Shown here one piece after another: positions 14,709 to 38,924 of a stretch of 64,000 bases of DNA. The notes under the pieces are model-generated. The model worked only from the letters and a program-made list of their open reading frames with translations, had not been told where the DNA came from and did no database searches. Location: assembly GCA_036867785.1 (NCBI GenBank), contig CP145415.1:434001-498000 (forward strand), in the 5' to 3' direction. Origin of the DNA: Plasmodiophora brassicae. Taxonomy: Eukaryota. Each line of letters starts with the position of its first letter. Within the stretch, counting starts at the first letter, position 1. The position numbers and the translations under genes are program-made.

Positions 14709-17358
14709 CCGCGTCGGCACAGTATTTCAACGGGTTCGAAGGCGCCTACAGACGACTCCGCATAGCGTGTCAACACGTCGTCCCCAGACGGTCTGTCGAG
14801 CTTGGCCGCTCTCTCGCACAAAAAATCGGACCAGCGCCTGGGGTTGCATTCTCTGGCCGTCCATCAAAACCCTGCGCGAAATTCATTAAGGTGAATAATC
14901 TCCCAGTATAGTAATGCCAACGGGTCGACCCGAGTCGGGCGAGCCAGGGACCTGTCCAGTCGGGTCTGGCCCGAATCTTGCCCTGGCGTCCACAATTCTG
15001 ACTCGGGTCAGACTCGAGTCGACCCAGGTCATGCATGAGTTGCATGCCACTTTCGTGCCTGCAGAAGGCCATGCTCGACGATTCACTGCAGACGAAATCG
15101 ACCTCGCCGCAAACGGTTCCAACGTCGTTGGCCGATAGTGATTCCTCGAGTCCAACCAAACGAATACGCCGGAGCTCGAGTCCAACCAGTTACGTTGGCG
15201 ATAACGCCAACGTCGGGATACAAGCTGGTGTTGTTGAAATCATTGATCCAGGGACCATATTCGAACGGCCCAGCATACAGACGAAGTCGACGTCGATGTT
15301 CGCACGACGACGTTTACGGGTTCTAGGATCGCGAGTCTTCAGACCGAGAACGCTGCGCACTAGGACGGCGTTGTTTGGAACCGCCTACTCCATCGCCCAT
15401 CGGGAACCAGGGGCTAAAGGAAGTCGACTTCTCGGGAATCACGTAACCGGGAAACTGGATAACGCAGGCCCCACCGCCAACATAGTCATTATCAGCGTGT
15501 TCAACCTGCCACCATCTACACAACAGTGGGGTCACCTTTCTGATAACAGCGGACAGATACTATGTGCCTAACTTGTCACAATAGAAACATTCCAGCTCGA
15601 ACGTTGAAGCGTCTGAAGTCGCTGCTGGGCATGGGAAGCCCAGGCGGGCAATCCTTCGAATGGATCCCAAGTATTGCCAGCCATATTCTCCAACGGTCAA
15701 GACAAGGTGGTTGCTTCTCCTTGGTTCGTCGCCATGTCCCTCGAGGTTGGCCTTCCAGAGGCAGTTGCCTATTACACCGGCCATGTAGCGGTTCATGGCA
15801 TGTGTGCACTGTGAATAAAATGCCAAAGGACGCTTGATTGAATACCTCGCACGTTGTCGGCAGATGGCGGACTCCAGCGACCGTCTTGCAGAACTTGTCA
15901 AACATTCGGATGTGACATATCTTGGAAAAGTTCTCGATACTGGCACGCGTTTCCTTGTGGAACATCTGGCATACTCTTCGGTAGTATTGCACGAAAGGCG
16001 AGTTCCGGTAATGCGCCCAGTCATCGGTCCATAGGTGGTGATGCAAATGGCACCGATCATCGTCCGGCAATGTACTCTGCGCAGCTAAAGCATCGTCGAT
16101 CCCGTATGAGGATCCATACACGACAGCTTGTGACTACAGGGTATCGACATCTTGAACCGGTCAGGGTAGAGAAACCTGCCACCCGTGATCAGCCATGTGG
16201 TCCAACATCCGATTGGTCGACATAGAGGCGACACTGGACTTTCTTCGAGAAGCGACAGTGGACTTTCTTCGAGAACGACGAATTCGGTAGCGGCGATGGT
16301 TCACGAACCGGTGACGTGAACCATCGCCGCTTCCGAATGCGTCGTCGCCTCTGGAAGAAACGCCTGTGGCGATGCACTCAGGGACAATGGGGACGGGCGT
16401 ACTTCAGGTGGGGACGACGACGATTTCGCCAACGCGCCTCGACGCCGCCGCTTTCGTAGTGGCAACACTGTTGTTTCAAGCCGGGGGATGACATCGATGG
16501 CGCTCGCAGCTGCAGTCCGGGGTGCGCGCTGCCTGGGCAGCTGGGCCAGGCCGTCCAGGGACAGGATACATTTGCTGTTGTCTTCCAGTACAAGATTTGC
16601 CTGTATTGTTGAATACGTTGTTGAGAGTATTTTGACACTATGTGAAGAAAAGGACATACGCTCACGCTGGCACTACGCTGTTACTGAACGCATCGATAGT
16701 GCCATGTTCCCTGCCAATAGATATCGAATACAGTACTGCGGGCAACAGCACCGCGCAAACACCACGACTGCGATCAGTCGTACATCAGCAGGCCTCTTTA
16801 TTTACGGACCAATCCGTACAATCCGTAAATAAGCTATTTACGGATGGACTACAGAGTTATATACGGATCCGTACGGATCCCTTAACGCATAGCGACATAG
16901 GGGGCAGTGACAATGTCTGGGAGTACTTTACTGACCTACTCAAACGTTAATGACTGCAGATATTCGTATTGCATGCAGTGCTGGCATCCTTCAAGGGATA
17001 AATCTGTAATCGCGACACGGAACTGGTCCTTCAGGGACTTCACGATCGAAAAATCGCTCTCGACCTGAGCGTTATGCGGGAAAACGGTCGCAATGCCACC
17101 ACAGAACTGTTGAAGGATGGGGAAGCGGTCTTTAACCGCTTTCCAACTGTCGTCGAAAGCAGAGCTTGAATCCAGACCATCCAGAGAGGCACGAAGAGTC
17201 GGCTCCATGGTATATGCTGAACACAACTCTCTATGTTGCTGTTCGATCAGGTCGATGTCGGTGCGGGTCCACTGCACCAAGAGACGAGAAGTTTGGCTAC
17301 GGACAACTGAGCAGAACTCCCTCGGCGGCAAGCGAACGAGTTCCTGTGGAGTGACTGG

Positions 17359-17450
17359 TGTCACGATCAGGCAAGCTGATGCAACGAACGCTTTGACGGA
17401 CTGGCGAAGTCCGTCGCGGGGTTCTCGGTTTATTCCGGACAGTCCTCACA
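17359..17450 (-). repeat. 3' LTR (92 bp)
   Basis: TGTCACGATC...GTCCTCACA, identical to 22783-22874. Confidence 0.93.
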
Positions 17451-17499
17451 TAATAGTCCCCTTCTAGCGATGGGCCTCTGACGGGTCCGGGATAGAAGG

Positions 17500-17805
17500 G
17501 CAGACGGATGGCCTCTGATGGGTCGCAGACGAACGGACAGGCGGATGAGCAGGCAGACGGGCGGGCAGACGGACGGACAGACGAACGGACAGGCGGATGA
17601 GCAGGCAGACGGGCGGGCAGACGGACGGACAGACGAACGGTGAGCAGGCAGACGGGCGGGCAGACGGACGGACAGACGGACGAACGGGCAGACGGACGGA
17701 CAGACGGACGAACGGGCAGACGGACGGACAGACGGACGAACGGGCAGACGGACGGATTAGCAGACGGACGGAGAGACGGGCGGGCGGGCAGACGGACGAA
17801 CAGGT
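17500..17805. repeat. GACG/GGCAGACG low-complexity tract
   Basis: Repeated GGGCAGACGGACGGACAGACG units; almost no T on the + strand. Confidence 0.85.
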
Positions 17806-17831
17806 TTGGTTAGTGACAGCACGTCGCAACC

Positions 17832-20800
17832 GAGGCCTTGACGTTGTGCAGGAGATGCCGAGGCGGGATCGACACTGGCGGACGGACGGACGGGTAGAGA
17901 CAGCAAGCGGTCAGGGAAACACCGGCGGCCTGGGAGGCAAACAGCACGGCGGGACACGCGCACTCTGGAACTTGGACCAGCTGCGACCGAGGCCTTGACG
18001 TTGTGCAGGAGATGCCGAGGCGGGATCGGCACGGACGGACGGGAAGAGACAGCAAGTGGTCAGGGGAACACCGGTGGCCTGAGAGGCATACAGCACGGCG
18101 GGACACGTACTCTGGGACTTGGACCAGGTACGACCAAGGCCTTGACGTTCTGCGGGGAATGCCGAGGCGAGATCGGCACGGACGGACGGACGGGCGGGAA
18201 GAGACAGCAAGCGGTCAGGGGAACACCGGTGGCCTGAGAGGCATACAGCACGGCGGGACACGCACTCTGGGACTTGGACCAGGTACGACCGAGGCCTTGA
18301 CGTTCTGCGGGGGATGCCGAGGCGAGATCGGCACGGACGGACGGACGGGCGGGAAGAGACAGCAAGCGGTCAGGGGAACACCTGTGGCCTGAGAGGCATA
18401 CAGCACGGCGGGACACGCACTCTGGGACTTGGACCAGGTACGACCGAGGCCTTGACGTTCTGCGGGGGATGCCGAGGCGAGATCGGCACGGACGGACGGG
18501 AAGAGACAGCAAGCGGTCAGGGGAACACCGGTGGCCTGAGAGGCATACAGCACGGCGGGACACGCACTCTGGGACTTGGACCAGGTACCACCGAGGCCTT
18601 GACGTTCTGCGGGGGATGCCGAGGCGAGATCGGCACGGACGGACGGGAAGAGACAGCAAGCGGTCAGGGGAACACCGGTGGCCTGAGAGGCATACAGCAC
18701 GGCGGGACACGCACTCTGGGACTTGGACCAGGTACGACCGAGGCCTTGACGTTCTGCGGGGGATGCCGAGGCGAGATCGGCACGGACGGACGGGAAGAGA
18801 CAGCAAGCGGTCAGGGGAACACCGGTGGCCTGAGAGGCATACAGCACGGCGGGACACGCACTCTGGGACTTGGACCAGGTACGACCGAGGCCTTGACGTT
18901 CTGCGGGGGATGCCGAGGCGAGATCGGCACGGACGGACGGGAAGAGACAGCAAGCGGTCAGGGGAACACCGGTGGCCTGAGAGGCATACAGCACGGCGGG
19001 ACACGCACTCTGGGACTTGGACCAGGTACGACCGAGGCCTTGACGTTCTGCGGGGGATGCCGAGGCGAGATCGGCACGGACGGACGGGAAGAGACAGCAA
19101 GCGGTCAGGGGAACACCGGTGGCCTGAGAGGCATACAGCACGGCGGGACACGCACTCTGGGACTTGGACCAGGTACGACCGAGGCCTTGACGTTCTGCGG
19201 GGGATGCCGAGGCGAGATCGGCACGGACGGACGGGAAGAGACAGCAAGCGGTCAGGGGAACACCGGTGGCCTGAGAGGCATACAGCACGGCGGGACACGC
19301 ACTCTGGGACTTGGACCAGGTACCACCGAGGCCTTGACGTTCTGCGGGGGATGCCGAGGCGAGATCGGCACGGACGGACGGGAAGAGACAGCAAGCGGTC
19401 AGGGGAACACCGGTGGCCTGAGAGGCATACAGCACGGCGGGACACGCACTCTGGGACTTGGACCAGGTACGACCGAGGCCTTGACGTTCTGCGGGGGATG
19501 CCGAGGCGAGATCGGCACGGACGGACGGGAAGAGACAGCAAGCGGTCAGGGGAACACCGGTGGCCTGAGAGGCATACAGCACGGCGGGACACGCACTCTG
19601 GGACTTGGACCAGGTACGACCGAGGCCTTGACGTTCTGCGGGGGATGCCGAGGCGAGATCGGCACGGACGGACGGGAAGAGACAGCAAGCGGTCAGGGGA
19701 ACACCGGTGGCCTGAGAGGCATACAGCACGGCGGGACACGCACTCTGGGACTTGGACCAGGTACGACCGAGGCCTTGACGTTCTGCGGGGGATGCCGAGG
19801 CGAGATCGGCACGGACGGACGGGAAGAGACAGCAAGCGGTCAGGGGAACACCGGTGGCCTGAGAGGCATACAGCACGGCGGGACACGCACTCTGGGACTT
19901 GGACCAGGTACGACCGAGGCCTTGACGTTCTGCGGGGGATGCCGAGGCGAGATCGGCACGGACGGACGGGAAGAGACAGCAAGCGGTCAGGGGAACACCG
20001 GTGGCCTGAGAGGCATACAGCACGGCGGGACACGCACTCTGGGACTTGGACCAGGTACGACCGAGGCCTTGACGTTCTGCGGGGGATGCCGAGGCGAGAT
20101 CGGCACGGACGGACGGGAAGAGACAGCAAGCGGTCAGGGGAACACCGGTGGCCTGAGAGGCATACAGCACGGCGGGACACGCACTCTGGGACTTGGACCA
20201 GGTACGACCGAGGCCTTGACGTTCTGCGGGGGATGCCGAGGCGAGATCGGCACGGACGGACGGGAAGAGACAGCAAGCGGTCAGGGGAACACCGGTGGCC
20301 TGAGAGGCATACAGCACGGCGGGACACGCACTCTGGGACTTGGACCAGGTACGACCGAGGCCTTGACGTTCTGCGGGGGATGCCGAGGCGAGATCGGCAC
20401 GGACGGACGGGAAGAGACAGCAAGCGGTCAGGGGAACACCGGTGGCCTGAGAGGCATACAGCACGGCGGGACACGCACTCTGGGACTTGGACCAGGTACC
20501 ACCGAGGCCTTGACGTTCTGCGGGGGATGCCGAGGCGAGATCGGCACGGACGGACGGGAAGAGACAGCAAGCGGTCAGGGGAACACCGGTGGCCTGAGAG
20601 GCATACAGCACGGCGGGACACGCACTCTGGGACTTGGACCAGGTACGACCGAGGCCTTGACGTTCTGCGGGGGATGCCGAGGCGAGATCGGCACGGACGG
20701 ACGGGAAGAGACAGCAAGCGGTCAGGGGAACACCGGTGGCCTGAGAGGCATACAGCACGGCGGGACACGCACTCCGGGACTTGGACCAGGTACGACCGAG

Positions 20801-22750
20801 GCCTTGACGTTCTGCGGGGGATGCCGAGGCGAGATCGGCACGGACGGACGGGAAGAGACAGCAAGCGGTCAGGGGAACACCGGTGGCCTGAGAGGCATAC
20901 AGCACGGCGGGACACGCACTCTGGGACTTGGACCAGGTACCACCGAGGCCTTGACGTTCTGCGGGGGATGCCGAGGCGAGATCGGCACGGACGGACGGGA
21001 AGAGACAGCAAGCGGTCAGGGGAACACCGGTGGCCTGAGAGGCATACAGCACGGCGGGACACGCACTCTGGGACTTGGACCAGGTACGACCGAGGCCTTG
21101 ACGTTCTGCGGGGGATGCCGAGGCGAGATCGGCACGGACGGACGGGAAGAGACAGCAAGCGGTCAGGGGAACACCGGTGGCCTGAGAGGCATACAGCACG
21201 GCGGGACACGCACTCTGGGACTTGGACCAGGTACGACCGAGGCCTTGACGTTCTGCGGGGGATGCCGAGGCGAGATCGGCACGGACGGACGGGAAGAGAC
21301 AGCAAGCGGTCAGGGGAACACCGGTGGCCTGAGAGGCATACAGCACGGCGGGACACGCACTCTGGGACTTGGACCAGGTACGACCGAGGCCTTGACGTTC
21401 TGCGGGGGATGCCGAGGCGAGATCGGCACGGACGGACGGGAAGAGACAGCAAGCGGTCAGGGGAACACCGGTGGCCTGAGAGGCATACAGCACGGCGGGA
21501 CACGCACTCTGGGACTTGGACCAGGTACGACCGAGGCCTTGACGTTCTGCGGGGGATGCCGAGGCGAGATCGGCACGGACGGACGGGAAGAGACAGCAAG
21601 CGGTCAGGGGAACACCGGTGGCCTGAGAGGCATACAGCACGGCGGGACACGCACTCTGGGACTTGGACCAGGTACGACCGAGGCCTTGACGTTCTGCGGG
21701 GGATGCCGAGGCGAGATCGGCACGGACGGACGGGAAGAGACAGCAAGCGGTCAGGGGAACACCGGTGGCCTGAGAGGCATACAGCACGGCGGGACACGCA
21801 CTCTGGGACTTGGACCAGGTACCACCGAGGCCTTGACGTTCTGCGGGGGATGCCGAGGCGAGATCGGCACGGACGGACGGGAAGAGACAGCAAGCGGTCA
21901 GGGGAACACCGGTGGCCTGAGAGGCATACAGCACGGCGGGACACGCACTCCGGGACTTGGACCAGGTACGACCGAGGCCTTGACGTTCTGCGGGGGATGC
22001 CGAGGCGAGATCGGCACGGACGGACGGGAAGAGACAGCAAGCGGTCAGGGGAACACCGGTGGCCTGAGAGGCATACAGCACGGCGGGACACGCACTCTGG
22101 GACTTGGACCAGGTACCACCGAGGCCTTGACGTTCTGCGGGGGATGCCGAGGCGAGATCGGCACGGACGGACGGGAAGAGACAGCAAGCGGTCAGGGGAA
22201 CACCGGTGGCCTGAGAGGCATACAGCACGGCGGGACACGCACTCTGGGACTTGGACCAGGTACGACCGAGGCCTTGACGTTCTGCGGGGGATGCCGAGGC
22301 GAGATCGGCACGGACGGACGGGAAGAGACAGCAAGCGGTCAGGGGAACACCGGTGGCCTGAGAGGCATACAGCACGGCGGGACACGCACTCTGGGACTTG
22401 GACCAGGTACGACCGAGGCCTTGACGTTCTGCGGGGGATGCCGAGGCGAGATCGGCACGGACGGACGGGAAGAGACAGCAAGCGGTCAGGGGAACACCGG
22501 TGGCCTGAGAGGCATACAGCACGGCGGGACACGCACTCTGGGACTTGGACCAGGTACGACCGAGGCCTTGACGTTCTGCGGGAGATGCCGAGGCGAGATC
22601 GGCACGGACGGACGGGAAGAGACAGCAAGCGGTCAGGGGAACACCGGTGGCCTGAGAGGCATACAGCACGGCGGGACACGTACTCTGGGACTTCGACCAG
22701 GTACCACCGAGGCCTTGACGTTCTGCAGGAGATGCCGAGGCGGGATCGAC
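17832..22750. repeat. 147-bp tandem array, about 33 copies
   Basis: Sequence at 18421 recurs in phase at 21361 (20 x 147); 49-aa periodicity in four ORFs; core units differ at only one or two positions. Confidence 0.97.
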
Positions 22751-22770
22751 AGGAGGGTGGTGGGATAGGT

Positions 22771-22781
22771 AGTCCGTCAAA
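22771..22781 (-). promoter_or_regulatory. Putative self-priming primer-binding site
   Basis: Minus-strand TTTGACGGACT lies 1 nt from the LTR and is the exact complement of AGTCCGTCAAA within the LTR (22826-22816). Confidence 0.75.
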
Positions 22782-22782
22782 A

Positions 22783-22874
22783 TGTCACGATCAGGCAAGC
22801 TGATGCAACGAACGCTTTGACGGACTGGCGAAGTCCGTCGCGGGGTTCTCGGTTTATTCCGGACAGTCCTCACA
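22783..22874 (-). repeat. 5' LTR (92 bp)
   Basis: Identical to 17359-17450; followed on the minus strand by a PBS complementary to the LTR itself. Confidence 0.93.
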
Positions 22875-25647
22875 ACTGGGGGGAAGTCAACCGTGCTCGG
22901 GTCGTTATTCGAATCCCGTTCACAAACAACATCAAAAATGCCACTGATAGCCAGCAAATACAGACTGGCAGTGGCGTCCACCACTTTGATGAAGGCTTCC
23001 GAATCCATCTCGTCAATTCGATCATGTACAAAGGTCCCCATGTCCAGAATAAAATTTTGAACATGTTCTCGATCGATAGCGAAACGATTACAGTCCGACG
23101 GCAACCACGAATCGCCCAACTGATCCACCTGATCGACAGACAAAGGACCGCGGCCATTGACATGCCCGAGAAGACGTCGGCAGAGCTCGCTCATTGCATG
23201 ACGTTGCATGTTAACCGTTTGTTTAGGACCCTGGATCGTCCTGAACGTGGTTCTGCAACAGGTAGCGAATTCGTGGACGACCATGAGCATAACCCACCAT
23301 TGGGGCGATGGTTTACACACAGGAGATGTCGAAAGCACATGGTCAAAGACCCGGACTCGGTGCAGGCTAAACCATGCTGTGACGCTGGCCATAGATTCCC
23401 ACCGGGTGTCGGCCACGGTGGGCACCTTCGTCCGCATTTCGTTGATGAGGTTGTGTTGACGACGCAGGTACCCGATTAACCTAGTGAGCGAAGAGTAAAA
23501 TTCGTCGTCGCCGTACCGCTTATAAACCTTCTGGAGAACAAGGTCTAGCTGGTGTGCGACACACCAAACGCGAATAAAACCAGGTTGGGCAACGCGCTGG
23601 AACCTGGTAACAACCCCGTTTAGCGACCCGGTCATCTTCTTCTCCCCGTCGGTAGTCGAACTCAGAATAACGTCACGCCACGACGTACAGACAGCATCCA
23701 GTGCTTTGCTGATAGTGTTGAAGATAACTTCAGCGGTATGCCGTTCGAATACTGGAATGGCGAGGAAATGACAGTTCACGATACCCGTGCGATTGCTGTG
23801 CAGGCGCAGGCGAACATCCAAGTACGACGTCGAAAAATGGGTCGACATATCCAGGGACACAGCGAATGCCCAAGATTTCGAAAGCATATCGGAGATCGAC
23901 TGCAAGTTGATGGCGCAGACGTAGCGCGCATATTTCGAAATAGTCGAATCCGAACACGACCCCAACGATGCGAGTCCCGTACGCTCCTTTGTGCGGGTAA
24001 GCAGGAATGCCGTCTGCCGGAACGAGCAGTTCACAGACAGATGGTCTACGGCAAGGTCGAATTGGGCAGGATTCCTGAAGTTGATTCAGTATTGAGATGA
24101 CATCTTGAAATTCACAACGCCTGACCGTATTTCGAATTCGTAGTTGCTGGGATCATCTGTTCCCTCAGAGGTAGAAAACGAACTCATCATCCGGGCACGC
24201 GTATCGCCTTCGAGGAGGTTCTCGGGATCCCAGAGCATATCGCCGATGATGACATCAACGATGCTCTTCTTGACCACGTGTACTCGCGTGACCTGACTCG
24301 CTCCAAAGTATTGGTGCAGAGTCGTCCGCACAGGTCGCGCGCCGCTGAAGAATGCCTTCTTCTGGTCGACACTGAGAGGCTCGTAGCGTTGCCAGTTCGC
24401 CGGATGCTGGCCTCTGTGATGTTGAGTGTAGTTATCAGCTCGGAATGGGAACCGGAAATACTTGACGTTCTTCCTCGCTTTGCGTTTGGCGCCAACCTTT
24501 TCTTCCCTGCCGAAATGGACGCAGAAGAGGCATTCGACGCTGAGCACAAGGTTCGGCTGGTTCACATGGTACTGAACGGGGCGCACAGCATATGCTAGCT
24601 CGTGAGAACGCTCGAAGGCCTCTGAATGCCCCGACGACATGCTGGCGCCACCGGCAACTGCACAATGCGGGGTCGCTTATTTACGGACCGACCGCAACTC
24701 TCCGTACGGATCCGTACGGAGAATACCGTGCAAAATCCGTAAATAAAGAGGCCTGTACATCAGGCCCGTTTTTCAATGACCACTGTCCGGATCCGCGTGG
24801 CTCCACACATCAGGAAAAATGGGCCTGATGAGGCGCCCCGACCCACCAGTGGTCGTTGAAAAATGGGCCTGATCTACGACTGCGCTCAGACATGCATCGG
24901 TGCTTTGGGGACCCCAACCCACAGTCAAGCAGATGCTCATTTGCGATATCGATCGCCAATGGCGAGCAACGAATCGAATCTGACGCAGACGACCAGATCC
25001 CGGAAGAGCGGCCCCGGACTAAGCGTAAGAGACGCGTTCAGAAAAGCAAAGGACCGTGCCCTCACTGGCACGAAATCAGCTGCAAGTTGGCTGCAGGCCA
25101 ATGGGCAATGGGCAATGGCTGCAGGCGGATGCAGGAATAGCTGCGCACAAGTTCACAACTGACGTCGTAAACAGCTGTTTCGCTATGTCGACGAGACCCT
25201 TCCTTTCAGCACTGGCCTTAAGATGATGCCCTGTCGAAGGGCAGAACGGCATCAGGCACGGGGGCAAGCGTACACCGATTCATCTTTGCGCAAGGCAACA
25301 TGGTGCGGGTGTGCACGATGTGCCATCCGGCCTTGGAGTTCCGCCGCCGGGGCGGACGGCGTCGTAATGACCAGTCCATCTGCAGTCCTGGGCGGGTACG
25401 GCGAATCTGACTCGGGCCGAATACCGGTATGTAGGAACCTCCAAACGTGAGTCGAGTTGGGTCGACTCGCTGCCCGTGTGGCCGTACGTTGCTGCGACGT
25501 TCAATGCACCGTTTTGCGTGTGGAGGCTACTGACGGATGGTGCCGTACTCTCCAAATCAATGACTCCTTGCCGATCCTTTCGTCGTTGTCCCGTCGAAAC
25601 CGCAGTGCTGGCGATGACAGTCGGTGTCGAATTGTAGATGAGGCGCT

Positions 25648-29651: not shown

Positions 29652-29723
29652 GGCCGCTTAGTTTAGTGGCATAATTCTCGGTTTGGGTCCGAGAGGTCCC
29701 GCGTTCGATTCGCGGAGCGGCCC
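29652..29723 (+). tRNA. tRNA-Pro(TGG)
   Basis: Acceptor stem GGCCGCT/AGCGGCC; anticodon arm CTCGG-TT-TGG-GT-CCGAG; T loop TTCGATT; TTTT terminator follows. Confidence 0.95.
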
Positions 29724-30527: not shown

Positions 30528-33449
30528 TTATTTGGACTTGCCCATCAAATTTAAAGCCGATCCTGCTTTGAACCATTCAATCTGGCCTTCGTTGAACGTA
30601 TGGTTGACCTTGAACTTAAACTCCTTTCCGTCAGCCTTCTTCACGGCGACATCGAGGGGGACTCCCGGCTTGAAGTTTGCCAGACCAAGGATAGAGATCT
30701 TGTCGGTGCCAGAAATTCGATCATAATCAGCGGGATCCGCAAACGTTAATGGAAGCATGCCCTAGTAGTTGACGAAAGGTTAGAAATGCAGTGCATATAG
30801 GACCATTAATATATCCCCGGACCTGCTTCTTCAAGTTGGTTTCATGAATACGGGCGAACGACTTAACGATAACGGCGCGGCCGCCGAGGAATCGCGGCTC
30901 CAACGCAGCATGCTCACGGGAGCTGCCCTCACCTGCAAGAACAGTCCCATCAGCGGTATAGTTAGCCAAACAACAGAGTAGGCAGGTACCGTAGTTCTCG
31001 TCTCCAATTACAACCCAGTCGATGCCTTTCGCCTTCATCGCCCGGGCAACAGTTGGGACACTGTCGTACACTTCCTTGCCTTCAACAGCATGGTTGCGAA
31101 CTTTGTTGATTTCGCCGTTGTCGTCGTTGACGGCACCAATCAGGCAGTTGTTGCTGATGTTGTCCAAATGACCGCGGTATTTCAACCAAGGGCCCGCCAT
31201 CGAAATGTGGTCGGTCGTGCATTTACCGCGAGCCTTGATGAGCACTCGGGCGTCTGTACACAGGTCGCATTAGACGCCGATTCACAATCGCACGATGAAA
31301 TTGACCTTTGATGTCCTTGCCGTTCCAGGGCGCGAACGGCTTGAGCAGTTGCAATCGATCCGATTTGGGATCAACAACAACTTGGACTTTCGAGCCATCC
31401 GCAGGCGGCTTCTGGAACGTTTCCTCACCGGCGTCAAACCCGCTTTGTGGCAAATCGGAGCCCGTCGGCGGAGAGAATTTGAATGCATTGCCGGAAGCAT
31501 CCTTGAGCGTGTCCGTGATCGGATTGAACGACAGACTTCCAGCGATTGCCATTGCCGTCACAATGTCAGGTGAAGCGACGAAGGCATGCGTGGCGGGGTT
31601 CCCGTCGTTACGCGAGGTGAAGTTCCGGTTGAAAGAAGTAACGATGGAGTTCTTTTCGCCCTTCTTGACATCCTTCCGGTCCCATTGCCCAATGCACGGT
31701 CCGCATGCGTTTGCTAACACAGTGCCTCCGACTTCCTGCAATTCGTACAGCACACGTGTTACACTCGGCTTACGATTACGGGCACCAGGTCTGAACCTAC
31801 CTGAAGAACGGACATCTGACCATCGCGGGCGATCGTAGCACGGACCATCTCGGAACCAGGCGTAATGTTGAAGGGAACGGCCACCTGAAACGGATCTATG
31901 AGCAGACGTTGCTGCGGGCAACACTCCGAATATAAAACCTTGAGGCCATGATCTAGCGCTTGCTGCGCGATAGACGCAGCGCGCGACATGTCTTCGTACG
32001 ACGAGTTCGTGCACGAGCCGATCAGTGCAACACTAAGCTTCTCTGGCCACCCGTTCTTCTTTACCGACGACTTGAATTCATCGATAGGATGCGCCAAGTC
32101 AGGGGTAAACGGACCTGCCATCTTGACGTCAGACAACACGTCCACACGAATAGACGACGTACCAACCGTTGAGGTGCGGCTGCAGAGTGCTCAAATCGAT
32201 CTCAATAACCTGGTCGTACTTGGCACCCTCGTCAGGGACCAGAATGGACGAGTACTTTTCTGCCAGGGATGCCATCTCCTCCCGGCCCGTGCTCTGAAGA
32301 TACGCCAGGTGGCGCTCGTTAAACGGGAACACGGACGTAGTGGCACCGATTTCCGCGCCCATGTTGCAGATGGTCCCCTGGCCGGTACACGAGATGGACT
32401 GCACGCCCTCGCCGAAGTACTCAACGATCGCGCCTGTGCCGCCCTTGACAGTCAGGATACCGGCGACTTTCAGGATAACGTCCTTCGGCGCCGTCCACCC
32501 ATTCAACTTCCCCGTCAGGTGGACACCGATCACCTTGGGAGCCTTCAGCTCCCATGGCAATCCGGCCATGACATCAACGGCATCTGCTCCACCGACGCCA
32601 ATGGCACAAGCGCCCAGACCACCAGCATTAGGAGTATGCGAATCCGTCCCGATCATCAGAAGGCCTAGAGAGAGGGAGTGCGCGTGAATGTTAGCGTCGG
32701 AGATCCTGCAACCATCGGGGATGCCAACCAGGGAATGCATAGTTCTCCAGCAGAATCTGGTGAATGATACCGGAACCAGGACGCCAGAATCCGATGCCGA
32801 ACTTCGCCGATGCCGTACCCAGGAAGTCGTACACTTCCTTGTTCTGCGACTTTGCTCGAGCCAGATCGGCCTTTCCTTCAATCTATGGTGGCATTTGCCC
32901 ATGAGTTAATTGACGGGACGCTGACGCAGGGAGTTCCGAAGGCGGAACGAACCTGCGCCTCAATCAAGTGGTCACAGTGGATCGTCGACGGCACGCGGGT
33001 CTTCGGCAAGCCACTTGACATGAACTGAAGGACGGCCATTTGCGCCGTTGCATCCTGCATGGCCACTCGGTCTGCAATATATCGCATTACACACGAGAAA
33101 TCCCTCTGAACGATCGGAAACGGCACCCACCTGGTCGCAAGCGCAAGTACGATTTGCCGCGTACGATCTCGCCGGCCGTCTCAGGTTCATCCAGGTGCCC
33201 GTACACGATCTTCTCTGCCAGCGTCAGCGGCTGCTTCAGATGCTGCTGGACGACCTCAAGACGATCCGCCATCTTCTGGTACGTGTCTTCCAGCGACGTG
33301 TGCGGCTCGAACTGGCTCAGCGCCACCGACAGCGCCCGGCGCGACAGGCCCTACCCATGCATACGTCAGCAACGATCCCCCGGCCGGGGCGGCTCGTCCT
33401 CGATCTGTACCGCATGCCCGGACAGGAGCCGCAGGCGACGAACTAACAT
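30528..33449 (-). CDS. ACO2: Mitochondrial aconitase, multi-exon
   Basis: Transit-like [86 protein letters not shown]. Confidence 0.96.
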
Positions 33450-33866: not shown

Positions 33867-34787
33867 ATGGATGTCCGCCACGGAGTGCGACACGAGTCGA
33901 TTACCGCTCGGGAATTCCTCGGCCTGACTGGCTGCTGCGTTCGCTGCCCAATGGTCAAGCATGGTATTCCGAAGGTGGGCCTTGCTGTCAGAGCGTTGAG
34001 AAAGGTGTGCCCCCGGAAATTCCGACAGGCTCGGGATAGGCAACCGGATCGCAATCGACCACTGCCGGACGTCGCCATTCGCGTCAAAACGAAGGATCGT
34101 CAACAACTTCGCCGTCCGCATCCGACTGCCGACGTTCCCGGCAAGGGTAACGATGGGCACCAACTTCGTCGTCTAAAATCCATCGCCGTCGTTCGTGTCA
34201 ACAACGATGACATTCCGGTGAAGGTGATTGGTCGCGTCCTGTCGCCCGGGCAATGGATCCCCGACGAGATCGTCAACGCTTATCTGTACCTATGCGCGAA
34301 GAGGTCCTCCCGTCGCATCGTCGCCATCTCCAGTTTCCTGCTGGCGTCTATCACGGAACGTTGGCGCGCACCGAACCGACATCGCTGGACAAGACGCGTT
34401 GACTGGAACGCCGTCGACATTGCACTCGTCCCAATTCACGTCCCGTCTCGCATGCATTGGGTACTTGCCGTCGTGGATATATCCGAACATGCTATATCGG
34501 CGCTGGATTCGTTACCGGGTCAGGCATTGCCCAAGGAGGTCTTTGTCCTGGCGAGGTACATGCGAAGTGAGATGGCGGCGCGAATGGGCGACAAACGCCC
34601 ATGGTCGACCCGGCCGTGGCACTGCGCCGTACCGACCCAGATGAACGGCGATGACTGTGGTGTGTTCGTCTGTGAATTTGCTAGGCGGGTTGCCCTTCGC
34701 CGTCGTATCGATCGTATCAGACCTGACCGAATGGACCGGGTCCGATCCAAGATAAAAGAGGAGCTGCTCGTGCAGCCTGTAATGTAG
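33867..34787 (+). CDS. Ulp1/SENP (peptidase C48) SUMO protease-like, single exon
   Basis: WIPDEIVNAY, VPIH...HWVLAVVD, LDSL, QMNGDDCGVFVC: His-Asp-Cys triad and oxyanion Gln. Confidence 0.85.
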   Translation: MDVRHGVRHESITAREFLGLTGCCVRCPMVKHGIPKVGLAVRALRKVCPRKFRQARDRQPDRNRPLPDVAIRVKTKDRQQLRRPHPTADVPGKGNDGHQLRRLKSIAVVRVNNDDIPVKVIGRVLSPGQWIPDEIVNAYLYLCAKRSSRRIVAISSFLLASITERWRAPNRHRWTRRVDWNAVDIALVPIHVPSRMHWVLAVVDISEHAISALDSLPGQALPKEVFVLARYMRSEMAARMGDKRPWSTRPWHCAVPTQMNGDDCGVFVCEFARRVALRRRIDRIRPDRMDRVRSKIKEELLVQPVM

Positions 34788-35149: not shown

Positions 35150-35296
35150 TTCATTTCAGGCACTGGCCACATGGGTTTGCAGAGTATTATGCGGTAGGAC
35201 AACATATACTCACGTCCGATTCATTTTCAGGCACTGGCCACATGGGTTTGCAGAGTATTATGCGGTAGGACAACATATACTCACGTCCGATTCATT
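35150..35296. repeat. ~70-bp tandem duplication
   Basis: CAGGCACTGGCCACATGGG...CACGTCCGATTCATT present twice. Confidence 0.9.
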
Positions 35297-35668
35297 GCCT
35301 CATGCCTGTCTGACTAAACTCTTCACATAGACGAAAGGCTGTACCAGAGACATGGTAGACTGCGGCCCGCGGGAGGAACGTCCGCCTGTCGGAACGGGTT
35401 CACACCGCGTCGGTCAGCTGCGTAACGCACGTTGGGTCAGCTCCGGCCGGAGTTCGGGGTACCGTTTGCACCACTGTTCGGCACACTATTTTCGTTCGCA
35501 CCACTGTTCGGCAAACTATTTTAGGTTCGTGATCCAGTGCCCAGTGCCCAGTGGTCCCTGCCCTCCTCACCCGTCGGGCGGCTGCATTCCCAAACGCCGT
35601 CTGTTGCATCCGTTGTGCCAACGCTGTCTGGAGTTTTACCATCAGCGCCGATGCGCCCCGCTACGAGG

Positions 35669-37207
35669 ATGCAGCTGCTGCTTCTGCTTGCCCTGGTCGT
35701 CGTCGACGACGTCGTCCTCGCCATGCCTGGCTTAAGGCACCCGGCTTTCGTGCCGAACGCGATCATGCCCGAAGAGAACGTGTATCGTTCGCAAGGCAGC
35801 GCTGCAAAGTTCCCATCGACGGGCGCCAGCTCGCGACCCCAGTTCACGATGCGTAAAGCCGTCGACGACACCCCTGGCCGGTTGCACCCGGCTTTCATCC
35901 CAGACGCGATCATGCCGAGTGAGGAGAAGACGGTGCGCCGACGTTCGTCGAACAACAACCTCAAGTCTCTCATGCGGGACGGGACCCGTCAGGTCATCAG
36001 CTCGCGATCCCAATTCGCGACACGTATTCCCGCCTCCCGGCCTGGTCTAACGCATCCCGCTTTCGTTCCGGACGCGATCATGTCAAGTGAAGAAGGCGAA
36101 ATGGATCCTCGTCAGTCGGACATCCCAACACTACCCTCAGTGGATGTGGTATTGCCCGAGGACGAGGCCACCGGCTCACAACTCCAGCCCGCCATACGCA
36201 AATCCGGTCAATCTCTCGGATTCGCATCCACGCCATCAATCTTGCCCAACAAGCCTAATGAGCTACACATGGACGTCTCTTCGCGTTGGTTCGCGTTAAA
36301 GGCAACGGTGGTGCTGATGCCGTCGACAATGGGCGTGTATCGTCTGACTTTAGAGAACGTTCAACGGCGTAAACTTCGTCAAGAAACCCCATTCTACCTT
36401 ATGGACAAGCGAATTCGTACGATCCTGGATAGACTTGTCGCTGTCAAAGACGTTGCATTGATCGATGTGCCCGGTGTCGACGTTGTCGCGATCGTTATCA
36501 GGCACCCCAATATCCAGAGGCTGATATATCGTTTAATGGCACCAGTTGGCCTCAAGGACGCGTTAAGGATCCCAGTGGGGCACATTGTCGGCGACGTTTG
36601 GGGCAATGATGTTATCCGCCTCACACAAGCGTCGTCAGTCGACGTCAAATACCAGATATCGCTCTGCTACCCAGTCTCACGCGTTCTGCTGACCTACTCC
36701 TGCCTGTCAAGGCGGTTGTTCATATCGTACTGCCATGTCACCTTCGGCGGACAACCTACCACCCATCATTGGGAGCTGAACGCCACTGAAATCGAATTTG
36801 GCGATCCGGGAGAATTTCTGAAAACGTACCCGAACCGGCACGACATTGAGATTCACCTGTCGTACTGCCCTCTGTCCGAGTCGGGTGTGCACGTGACCAA
36901 GCACTTCGCCATAAACAGGGTATACCAAAAGAACCCGACTAATGCTATGGGGTCGGATGTCATCGGCCAACTGAGGGCCGTCAAGACCGAGATCGATCCT
37001 CAACTTGCCAGGATCGACTATGTCATCCAGGCATTTTCCAGAGCCGGTTTGTCAATGGAGATGCAGGTCAGCGTCGCCGCCAGTGCCAATGGTCCCGAGA
37101 AAACCTTCCGTTCGAGGTGGACCTGGGCCGTTGGGAAGTCCTGGCCCATGGGGAGGTTCTGGCTGGACTTCGCTAATGAAGTATTTCCCGACAGCCCCAC
37201 TGCCTGA
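35669..37207 (+). CDS. Secreted hypothetical protein, paralogue A
   Basis: Signal-peptide-like MQLLLLLALVVV; three HPAF(V/I)P(N/D)AIM repeats; C-terminal region shared with the next gene. Confidence 0.8.
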   Translation: MQLLLLLALVVVDDVVLAMPGLRHPAFVPNAIMPEENVYRSQGSAAKFPSTGASSRPQFTMRKAVDDTPGRLHPAFIPDAIMPSEEKTVRRRSSNNNLKSLMRDGTRQVISSRSQFATRIPASRPGLTHPAFVPDAIMSSEEGEMDPRQSDIPTLPSVDVVLPEDEATGSQLQPAIRKSGQSLGFASTPSILPNKPNELHMDVSSRWFALKATVVLMPSTMGVYRLTLENVQRRKLRQETPFYLMDKRIRTILDRLVAVKDVALIDVPGVDVVAIVIRHPNIQRLIYRLMAPVGLKDALRIPVGHIVGDVWGNDVIRLTQASSVDVKYQISLCYPVSRVLLTYSCLSRRLFISYCHVTFGGQPTTHHWELNATEIEFGDPGEFLKTYPNRHDIEIHLSYCPLSESGVHVTKHFAINRVYQKNPTNAMGSDVIGQLRAVKTEIDPQLARIDYVIQAFSRAGLSMEMQVSVAASANGPEKTFRSRWTWAVGKSWPMGRFWLDFANEVFPDSPTA

Positions 37208-37724
37208 AGCGCCCGCGCAGCACAAATCCTAACATTAGGAGGTTTTCAGTGACCATTGACCCAGACGGTTTGTATACAATACACGCTACTCCTCAAAGGG
37301 TGCCATCATTAGGAACCGCGTCGTTCGCCCGGGTATGTGCTGAGTGGGTGCCCTGACAGCCCAGTGGGGATTAATGACGTCATGGAGTCCATTGCTAAAC
37401 AAAATCGCCGTTCGTACCGAGCGCATGTATCACAGGAGCAATAAACGGCCAAAGCGTTCCGGGGGGACGCCGTTTGTTGCTGGGTCCGGAACGTGGCCCG
37501 TAAGGAACATCTGTTTGGCGCTAGTGGCGCTGCAGAGCAACGTGCCAGACGCGCTGGTCAAACAATGCGTCTGTCGCAAAACACAATGTTGCGACAGTCA
37601 TTCGAGCAGCAACTGCGCCACTGTCGCAACTAGCAGACTGCGAACTTGTGGACGCGTTCGCCGCGTCAATCACTGCGCAGTTTTGATCGCAGCACCGTCG
37701 GAACCGCCATCACGCGTCTGCACC

Positions 37725-38924
37725 ATGACGACGCTGGTGATTCTGCTCGTTCTGGTCATCTGCAACCCCGTCGTTGCCACAGCAGCTGACAAGTTTATAA
37801 CGCAACCGCGCTCTACGCTCAGCTTGCGCCCTGTTGCGGGAGCTAAGGCCAATATCCGTCGGCGATCGTTCAACGTCGCCCCAGAGTTCCCCCTGCTGGA
37901 CACGGTCCCCCAGTTCGACTCGCCAAGCAGGTTCACGGTGACGTCGTCCGGATCCCCACCCGCATCTCCGACGAAGTCCGCGTCCACCTTCAAGGTCATC
38001 GTCTTGCGCAAGGAGCCCGACGACCACATCCTGCACCTAGACGTCTCGTCGCCCTGGTTCACATTGTCCAAGCTGATGGCACCGGCACCGAACGTGCACC
38101 ATTTGACGCTCGACAACGCCCGAGGACACACCCGCGACCTCAATGAACGCATTCGCACCGTCCTGGACAAGATGGGTGGGATCCAGGACGTCACGCTGAT
38201 TGGGGTACCCGGGTTCCACATCGTTCCGAGCGTCGTCGACCACGACAATATCCAGACGATGCGGTCCCTGCTAAAAGCACCGGTTCGCGGCAAGGGTGCG
38301 CTACCGTTCCCGAAGGGTCACGTCCTCGGCGCCGTTTGGGGAAACGACGCTCTTCAGCTGACTGAACAATCTTCCGTTCGTTTGGTCGTCTCCACGCGTA
38401 AAGAGCAGACATGCAAGCTGCTGGCGCCAGCTGTCCTGTCGTACTCCTGCCACACGGGGCGCCTTTTCATATCGTACTGCCAGGTCCTGCTGTTCGGTAC
38501 ACGACGAAGGACGCGCACGTGGGACCTGTCCGCCGATTACGTCTCGTTCGCCGGCGCTGAGACCTTCCTGTCGACGTACTCAAACGTGCACAACGTCGAG
38601 ATCCGCCTGTCGTCCTGTCCGCTGTTCGCAACGCACGTTCACCTGCCGAAGCACTTCGCCAGGAACGTCGTCTACCAGAAGGACCCGATTGACGCCCGTT
38701 ACATCGAGCGTCTGCACGTCCGCATGCCCGAGATCGACCCCGACCAGGCCAGCATCGATTACGCCGTCGTCGAGTCGACGCCATCCGGTTCCGAAATGGA
38801 GATCGAGGTCAGCGTCGACGGCGACCGAATCGTCCGCTCCAAGTGGACATGGTCGAAGGGGCGCTTCCGCATCGCCGACCACGTTGCCGCGAATCGCGTC
38901 AAGCACCAGCGTCGTTACGAATAA
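37725..38924 (+). CDS. Secreted hypothetical protein, paralogue B
   Basis: Signal-peptide-like MTTLVILLVLVICNPVVATA; shares LHxDVSSxWF, RIRTxLD, VWGND, RLFISYC, KHFA, VYQKxP, EIDP and IDY with paralogue A. Confidence 0.8.
   Translation: MTTLVILLVLVICNPVVATAADKFITQPRSTLSLRPVAGAKANIRRRSFNVAPEFPLLDTVPQFDSPSRFTVTSSGSPPASPTKSASTFKVIVLRKEPDDHILHLDVSSPWFTLSKLMAPAPNVHHLTLDNARGHTRDLNERIRTVLDKMGGIQDVTLIGVPGFHIVPSVVDHDNIQTMRSLLKAPVRGKGALPFPKGHVLGAVWGNDALQLTEQSSVRLVVSTRKEQTCKLLAPAVLSYSCHTGRLFISYCQVLLFGTRRRTRTWDLSADYVSFAGAETFLSTYSNVHNVEIRLSSCPLFATHVHLPKHFARNVVYQKDPIDARYIERLHVRMPEIDPDQASIDYAVVESTPSGSEMEIEVSVDGDRIVRSKWTWSKGRFRIADHVAANRVKHQRRYE

Follow-up and report, generated by a model that had tools for sequence, protein, structure and literature searches.

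A putative Tf1-like self-priming site in a young, non-autonomous LTR retroelement of Plasmodiophora brassicae

[quoted passage not shown] It is predicted in the Tf1/sushi elements of fungi, vertebrates and non-seed plants and in the TAR copia elements of plants. The RNA of Tf1/sushi elements is described as a "pretzel" consisting of the primer:PBS (primer-binding site) duplex and two duplexes formed by PBS-adjacent and LTR sequence; the predicted transcription starts coincide with the first base of the primer and lie downstream of TATA boxes (bioRxiv 10.1101/2022.12.06.519325). Tj1 of S. japonicus has been interpreted in the same way (PMC4600332).

Neumann et al. (2019) predicted self-priming for 12% of plant elements, which belong to the Tcn1 clade, kin of Tf1/sushi, and to the TAR lineage of Ty1/copia. 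Their operational criterion is a stretch of at least 10 bp in the 5' LTR that is complementary to a region beginning 0–5 bp past this LTR (PMC6317226). The TRIM elements, among the closest described non-autonomous elements, are shorter than 1 kb, have terminal repeats of 100–250 bp and carry a tRNA-type PBS; the account of them in PMC6934838 describes no self-priming non-autonomous element of such kind. Published descriptions of Plasmodiophora brassicae assemblies give a repeat content of 11–14%, mostly Gypsy and Copia LTR elements. In the literature searched, no paper was found that joins self-priming with Plasmodiophora.

The window analysed here, a stretch of 64,000 nucleotides of P. brassicae DNA, contains on its minus strand a young, non-autonomous LTR retroelement which lies inside a transposase-like ORF and measures 5,516 nt from LTR to LTR (17359–22874, Table 1). 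Its two direct repeats of 92 nt are identical to each other and have TG..CA ends, and the same five bases, a target duplication, are found on both flanks. A self-BLAST of the window in which the 147-bp array was masked found no other LTR pair.

Table 1. Coordinates of the features of the element and of the ORF that it interrupts (positions in the window; LTR nucleotides are numbered from the first base of the LTR on the minus strand).
Feature	Position	Strand	Basis or remark
Target duplication CCAGT, upstream of the 5' LTR	22875..22879	-	Single copy in the empty-site contig
5' LTR, 92 nt, TGTG...GACA	22783..22874	-	92/92 identity with the 3' LTR
AATAAA, LTR nt 17-22, sole WATAAA of the LTR	22853..22858	-	TATA-like and/or poly(A) candidate, function inferred
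GACGGACT, LTR nt 36-43, 8 letters identical to the 3' part of the PBS	22832..22839	-	Pair probabilities
Candidate self-primer AGTCCGTCAAA, LTR nt 49-59	22816..22826	-	Sequence; 22826 (A) is +1 in a YYANWYY match
U5 hairpin ATCAG-CTTGC-CTGAT, LTR nt 71-85	22790..22804	-	Minimum-free-energy and centroid folds
Primer-binding site TTTGACGGACT, 1 nt past the LTR	22771..22781	-	Sequence, fold; extended to 12 bp if T22782 forms a G-U pair
147-bp tandem array, 33.3 copies, 98% matches	17829..22748	-	Without retroelement protein domains
Short-period repeats, CCGTCCGTCTG type on the sense strand	17525..17804	-	Repeat analysis
Candidate polypurine tract AGAAGGGGA	17457..17465	-	Function inferred
3' LTR, 92 nt	17359..17450	-	Repeat comparison
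Target duplication CCAGT, downstream of the 3' LTR	17354..17358	-	Sequence
Host ORF, upstream part	22877..24085	-	hAT-transposase-like, protein-atlas lead only
Host ORF, downstream part	16939..17352	-	In frame after removal of the element and one duplication copy

The excision of 17359–22874 together with one CCAGT fuses the flanks into a single uninterrupted reading frame. Public reads contain the corresponding empty site. In run X13, a contig of 1,177 nt spans 22875–23100 with no differences and continues with 30 letters that are those of window positions 17324–17353, with a single ACTGG, i.e., one copy of the duplication, between the flanks. A loose end of 13 letters in run X15 has the same flank-to-flank junction. 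Whether the empty site is allelic or paralogous to the occupied one, a contig with one duplication copy fixes the borders of the element to the base. Considering the target duplication, the TG..CA ends and the empty-site contig, the insertion is of the integrase type, and the site examined here is its true 5' LTR/internal junction.

The five letters of the target duplication are also those of LTR nt 47–51 (22824–22828), around the transcription start proposed below. This is probably a coincidence, as a match to one of the 5-mers of the LTR is expected in roughly 1 case out of 12.

Past the 5' LTR, the internal region consists, in this order, of a T (22782), the 11-mer of the PBS, 22 nt of unique sequence, the 147-bp array, the short-period repeats and a purine run, and the 6 nt CTATTA separate this run (17465–17457) from the 3' LTR. 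The element reaches 5.5 kb because of the 4.9-kb tandem array. Four of the six frames of the array are open, and open frames are common in GC-rich repeats. No Pfam match to RT, integrase or gag was obtained in 32 frames (30 long ORFs of the window and two open frames of the array); the Pfam hits in the array are sums of tiny repeated matches, none of whose stretches passes alone. Two contigs from RNA libraries, one from X19 (oligo-dT) and one from X20 (metatranscriptome), correspond to the array only (22640–22748 and 22640–22755, respectively). They differ from one array unit at 7 of 109 nt and at 3 of 116 nt, and may result from DNA carry-over.

The interrupted ORF has about 540 codons and no Pfam match. 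Its protein-atlas features (0.91–0.95) indicate a likeness to FAM200/ZBED5 RNase-like proteins, DUF4371 and hAT dimerisation domains. It thus resembles a hAT-type transposase, as far as a lead from such features goes.

A preliminary description of this locus, made from the DNA letters, had claimed that the minus-strand sequence past the 5' LTR does not begin with TGG, that it reads instead as a perfect 11-nt complement of a sequence inside the LTR, and that an AATAAA lies about 30 nt upstream of that 11-mer. These three observations hold. The PBS TTTGACGGACT (22781–22771) pairs at 11/11 positions with AGTCCGTCAAA (22826–22816), the hexamer is found at 22858–22853, and TGG is absent from the 43 nt beyond the 5' LTR, which excludes a tRNA 3' end as the primer. 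The PBS was also compared with tRNA 3' ends, as the preliminary description had proposed. The window has two tRNAs, tRNA-Glu(TTC) (1698–1770) and tRNA-Pro(TGG) (29652–29723), which are its sole Rfam matches at the gathering score; with CCA added, their longest pairings with the region past the LTR are of 0 and 5 nt. A tRNA-primed LTR retroelement was rejected on these two grounds, the lack of TGG within 43 nt and the 0 and 5 nt of pairing.

The 11-mer pair is the longest complement between the LTR and the 30 nt beyond it. In the window, the 11-mer or its complement occurs at three sites, the two LTRs and the PBS, whereas 100 shuffles gave an expectation of 0.00. The operational definition of a self-primer by Neumann et al. 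(PMC6317226) covers this locus, with 11 bp and an offset of 1. The frequency of such matches was evaluated in the window with a strict null, i.e., a 92-nt block followed within 0–3 nt by an 11-mer whose perfect reverse complement is inside the block. On each strand, 54 of 63,894 positions show this arrangement, grouped in 11 and 10 clusters, one of which is the present site. The looser published form (a complement of at least 10 nt, offset 0–5) is satisfied at 147 and 141 of 63,893 positions on the two strands. The chance of such a match at a given LTR border is therefore roughly 1 in 1,000.

In the contigs from public runs, no variant letter at a frequency of at least 5% is reported in 22771–22874. 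A minor 61-nt contig of X15 (22766–22826) has two other letters; with a word size of 31, a bubble around one variant has this same length, and no meaning is attached to the ends of the contig.

The RNA that would extend from LTR nt 49 to past the PBS is predicted to fold into a 12-bp stem of −23.7 kcal/mol (z −4.33; 0 of 200 shuffles are equally stable), which encloses a short 3-bp helix and the 5-bp U5 hairpin. The pair probabilities of the primer:PBS duplex are 0.89–1.0 in a 227-nt context, and 0.5–1.0 if the RNA starts at LTR nt 1. The model also predicts a hairpin between nt 36–43 and nt 49–56 of the LTR, with a probability of 0.88–0.96 in the context of the 3' LTR and 0.0 in that of the 5' LTR. 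The 11-mer would therefore be bound to the PBS in the 5' LTR and hidden in the hairpin in the 3' LTR. According to this fold model, nt 36–43 might act as a decoy for the primer copy of the 3' LTR, which it would mask, or contribute to 3'-end formation.

The third duplex of the Tf1 pretzel, between the sequence past the PBS and the LTR, was also looked for. Its energy here is −11.2 kcal/mol; the 1,000 shuffles average −10.6 kcal/mol, and 37% of them are as good. This duplex is not supported, so that the folding predictions support two of the three duplexes. A search of Rfam with 22700–22900 gave five matches at E 1–3.9, all far below gathering scores.

YYANWYY is the initiator consensus of animal promoters. 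Its sole match in the LTR is CCAGTCC (22828–22822), whose A is nt 49, 32 nt past AATAAA; the consensus of the host may be a different one. The geometry of the hexamer and of this initiator match is suggestive of a start at nt 49. Such a start would give an R+U5 of 44 nt, with the sole AATAAA upstream of it; 3'-end formation is therefore unexplained by the model.

Tf1-style self-priming appears to be the best explanation of these observations and is, as an inferred mechanism, rather probable. Transcription would start at or near LTR nt 49 (22826), about 30 nt past AATAAA, and the first 11 nt of the RNA (AGUCCGUCAAA) would fold onto the PBS (22781–22771) over a 34-nt loop that holds the small U5 hairpin. 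The RNase H of a helper element would then cut past the duplex, as occurs in Tf1 between nt 11 and 12, and the RT of the helper would extend the 11-mer. The PBS of each new copy would be re-copied from the primer, and the pairing would thereby stay perfect.

Two further contigs of X13 (22779–22815) consist of the last 30-odd bases of the LTR and TTT or TTTT, followed by unrelated sequence. In the same run, the summed contig depth is 1,700–2,300 over LTR nt 60–92, compared to about 300 over nt 1–59. The TTT and TTTT contigs are possibly sister elements, other insertion flanks, or the product of an overlap in the assembly graph. If they are the 5' junctions of sister elements, the present PBS is not common to the whole family.

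The stem could have another function than priming. It might be a structure of the 5' leader, involved in packaging, dimerisation, stability or start-proximal regulation, while another RNA (a tRNA half or fragment, or a small RNA) would be the primer. Half-tRNA primers are indeed described in several Ty1/copia lineages (PMC6317226), the comparison made here took in only the two tRNAs of the window, the start at nt 49 is itself a prediction and the third pretzel duplex is unsupported. This explanation is nevertheless considered unlikely: the lack of TGG past the LTR excludes a tRNA 3' end, the complement begins 1 nt past the LTR, precisely at the place of a PBS, and has the same length as that of Tf1 (PMC7175516), and within the 64 kb the complement of the PBS is found nowhere else than in the LTR. 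It is even less probable, and indeed extremely so, that the 56-nt stem-loop is a substrate of host RNAi (a miRNA-like or siRNA precursor) instead of a priming structure. The idea draws on a report that in P. brassicae palindromic regions give rise to miRNAs and transposable elements to siRNAs (PMC13547706). The Rfam matches to mir-2 are at chance level (E 1.1 and 2.4, with 16 and 15 bits vs a gathering score of 45.5), the position at the LTR/PBS border is better explained by priming, and a role in RNAi would in any case be compatible with priming.

The complementarity might also be devoid of function, and be a by-product of the GTCCGTC/GACGGAC low-complexity repeats that fill the element and the LTR. 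The sense strand of the element contains 54 copies of GTCCGTC, both orientations of the motif are present inside the LTR (nt 36–43 and nt 49–56), and the evidence comes from a single element. Several observations make this very unlikely. The antisense motif GACGGAC is found only three times on the sense strand, at nt 36–43 of each LTR and at the PBS, which is thus its sole internal occurrence; the match runs 4 nt past the shared 7-mer; the geometry of the start site coincides with the match; and the background rate of the strict null is low (54/63,894).

Self-priming, if it occurs here, depends on the enzymes of a helper. The preliminary description concluded that the helper is a Tf1/sushi-like Ty3/gypsy element, and this conclusion was not upheld. 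No helper element was found in the 64-kb window, since RT, integrase and gag are matched in none of the 32 frames. The 11-nt self-primer signature, the central duplex and the adjacent U5 hairpin all speak for mobilisation by a chromovirus of the Tf1/sushi group, as do the self-priming common to Tf1/sushi elements (bioRxiv 10.1101/2022.12.06.519325) and the gypsy elements reported in P. brassicae assemblies. On the other hand, this genome is reported to contain copia elements as well, the third pretzel duplex lacks support, and the Ty1/copia TAR elements are also predicted to be self-priming (PMC6317226). As the prediction concerns both the Tcn1 clade and TAR copia, the signature does not identify the class of the helper. 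A Tf1/sushi helper is a possible but rather doubtful proposal. A 5-bp duplication and TG..CA ends, which both occur here, do not discriminate between Ty3/gypsy and Ty1/copia. The helper could be Tf1/sushi-like Ty3/gypsy, TAR-like Ty1/copia, or of another class.

The element can be compared with the described systems irrespective of its helper. It has in common with Tf1/Tf2 of S. pombe and with the Tf1/sushi group (Tj1, Tosmo, Tcn1, Maggy, Skippy, sushi-ichi) a PBS located directly past the 5' LTR and complementary to an 11-mer of the LTR, the position of this 11-mer about 30 nt past a TATA-like hexamer, a central primer:PBS duplex with a neighbouring U5 stem-loop, an LTR ending in CA and a 5-bp target duplication. 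It differs from them in that it has neither gag nor pol, that its LTR is only 92 nt long, that the third pretzel duplex lacks support, and that it has an extra copy of the PBS letters in U3, which is predicted to pair with the 11-mer as a hairpin when in the 3' LTR. The hosts of Tf1/sushi elements are fungi, vertebrates and non-seed plants, whereas the host is here a rhizarian. The likeness to the plant TAR elements, whose self-priming is predicted, is that the same operational criterion applies to both (PMC6317226).

Similarly, the element resembles TRIM and LARD elements in its terminal direct repeats, the position of the PBS, the candidate PPT, the target duplication, the absence of coding capacity and the dependence on a helper (PMC6934838). 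In contrast with a TRIM, it measures 5.5 kb rather than less than 1 kb, its PBS is self-complementary rather than of the tRNA type, and its 92-nt LTR is below the range of 100–250 bp. The identification as a TRIM was ruled out by the length of 5,516 nt, the 92-nt repeats and the lack of a tRNA-type PBS.

In X13, the LTR and PBS have a summed contig depth 6–80 times that of the flank. Depth is not equal to copy number, and this excess fits the presence of several copies. Taken together, the identical LTRs, the empty site in public reads and the depth in X13 indicate that the family has probably been active recently. A scan of metagenomes with a 24-nt word of the LTR gave no match. When the 11-mers of the primer and of the PBS, separated by 20–50 nt, were searched for instead, 10 loci were recovered, all of them unrelated hairpins (in contigs of 26–53% GC) and none similar to the present LTR.

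The window contains other features. An aconitase ORF (32129–32902, minus strand) is 99% identical to a P. brassicae protein (NCBI), with 66% of the query aligned. On the plus strand, two adjacent ORFs (35651–37207, 518 codons, and 37374–38924, 516 codons) lack Pfam matches and share 115 nt at 73% identity (36824–36938 and 38574–38688). Judging from this similarity, they may be tandem paralogues. Just upstream of this pair are an ORF for a Ulp1-type C48 peptidase (33867–34787) and a 71-nt tandem repeat (35150–35296). At a distance of 1 kb from the 3' end of the element is a palindrome of about 100 nt (16264–16360), for which the alignment to the reverse complement has 102 columns at 82%.

The priming mechanism proposed here is a known one; what is unusual is the host and the degree to which the element is reduced. 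Read jointly, the features described above would define the first lineage of self-priming LTR retroelements in Rhizaria, in a stripped-down form, with a 92-nt LTR that serves as promoter, primer and U5, a satellite as cargo, nt 36–43 as a mask and a dual-use AAUAAA. This joint reading is speculative and its probability is low. If it is true, the U3 copy at nt 36–43 masks the 3' primer so that only the 5' copy reaches the PBS, and the same hairpin draws AAUAAA nearer to the downstream cleavage site, so that one hexamer is both TATA box and poly(A) signal. Neither a masking hairpin nor a dual-use hexamer is described for Tf1.

The probable recent activity of the family makes the element a possible marker of insertion polymorphism. 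A clean rhizarian case would widen the range of self-priming, or show that it has an independent origin. A protein-less element with only an LTR, a primer, a PBS and a PPT would mark the minimal cis-requirements of self-priming.
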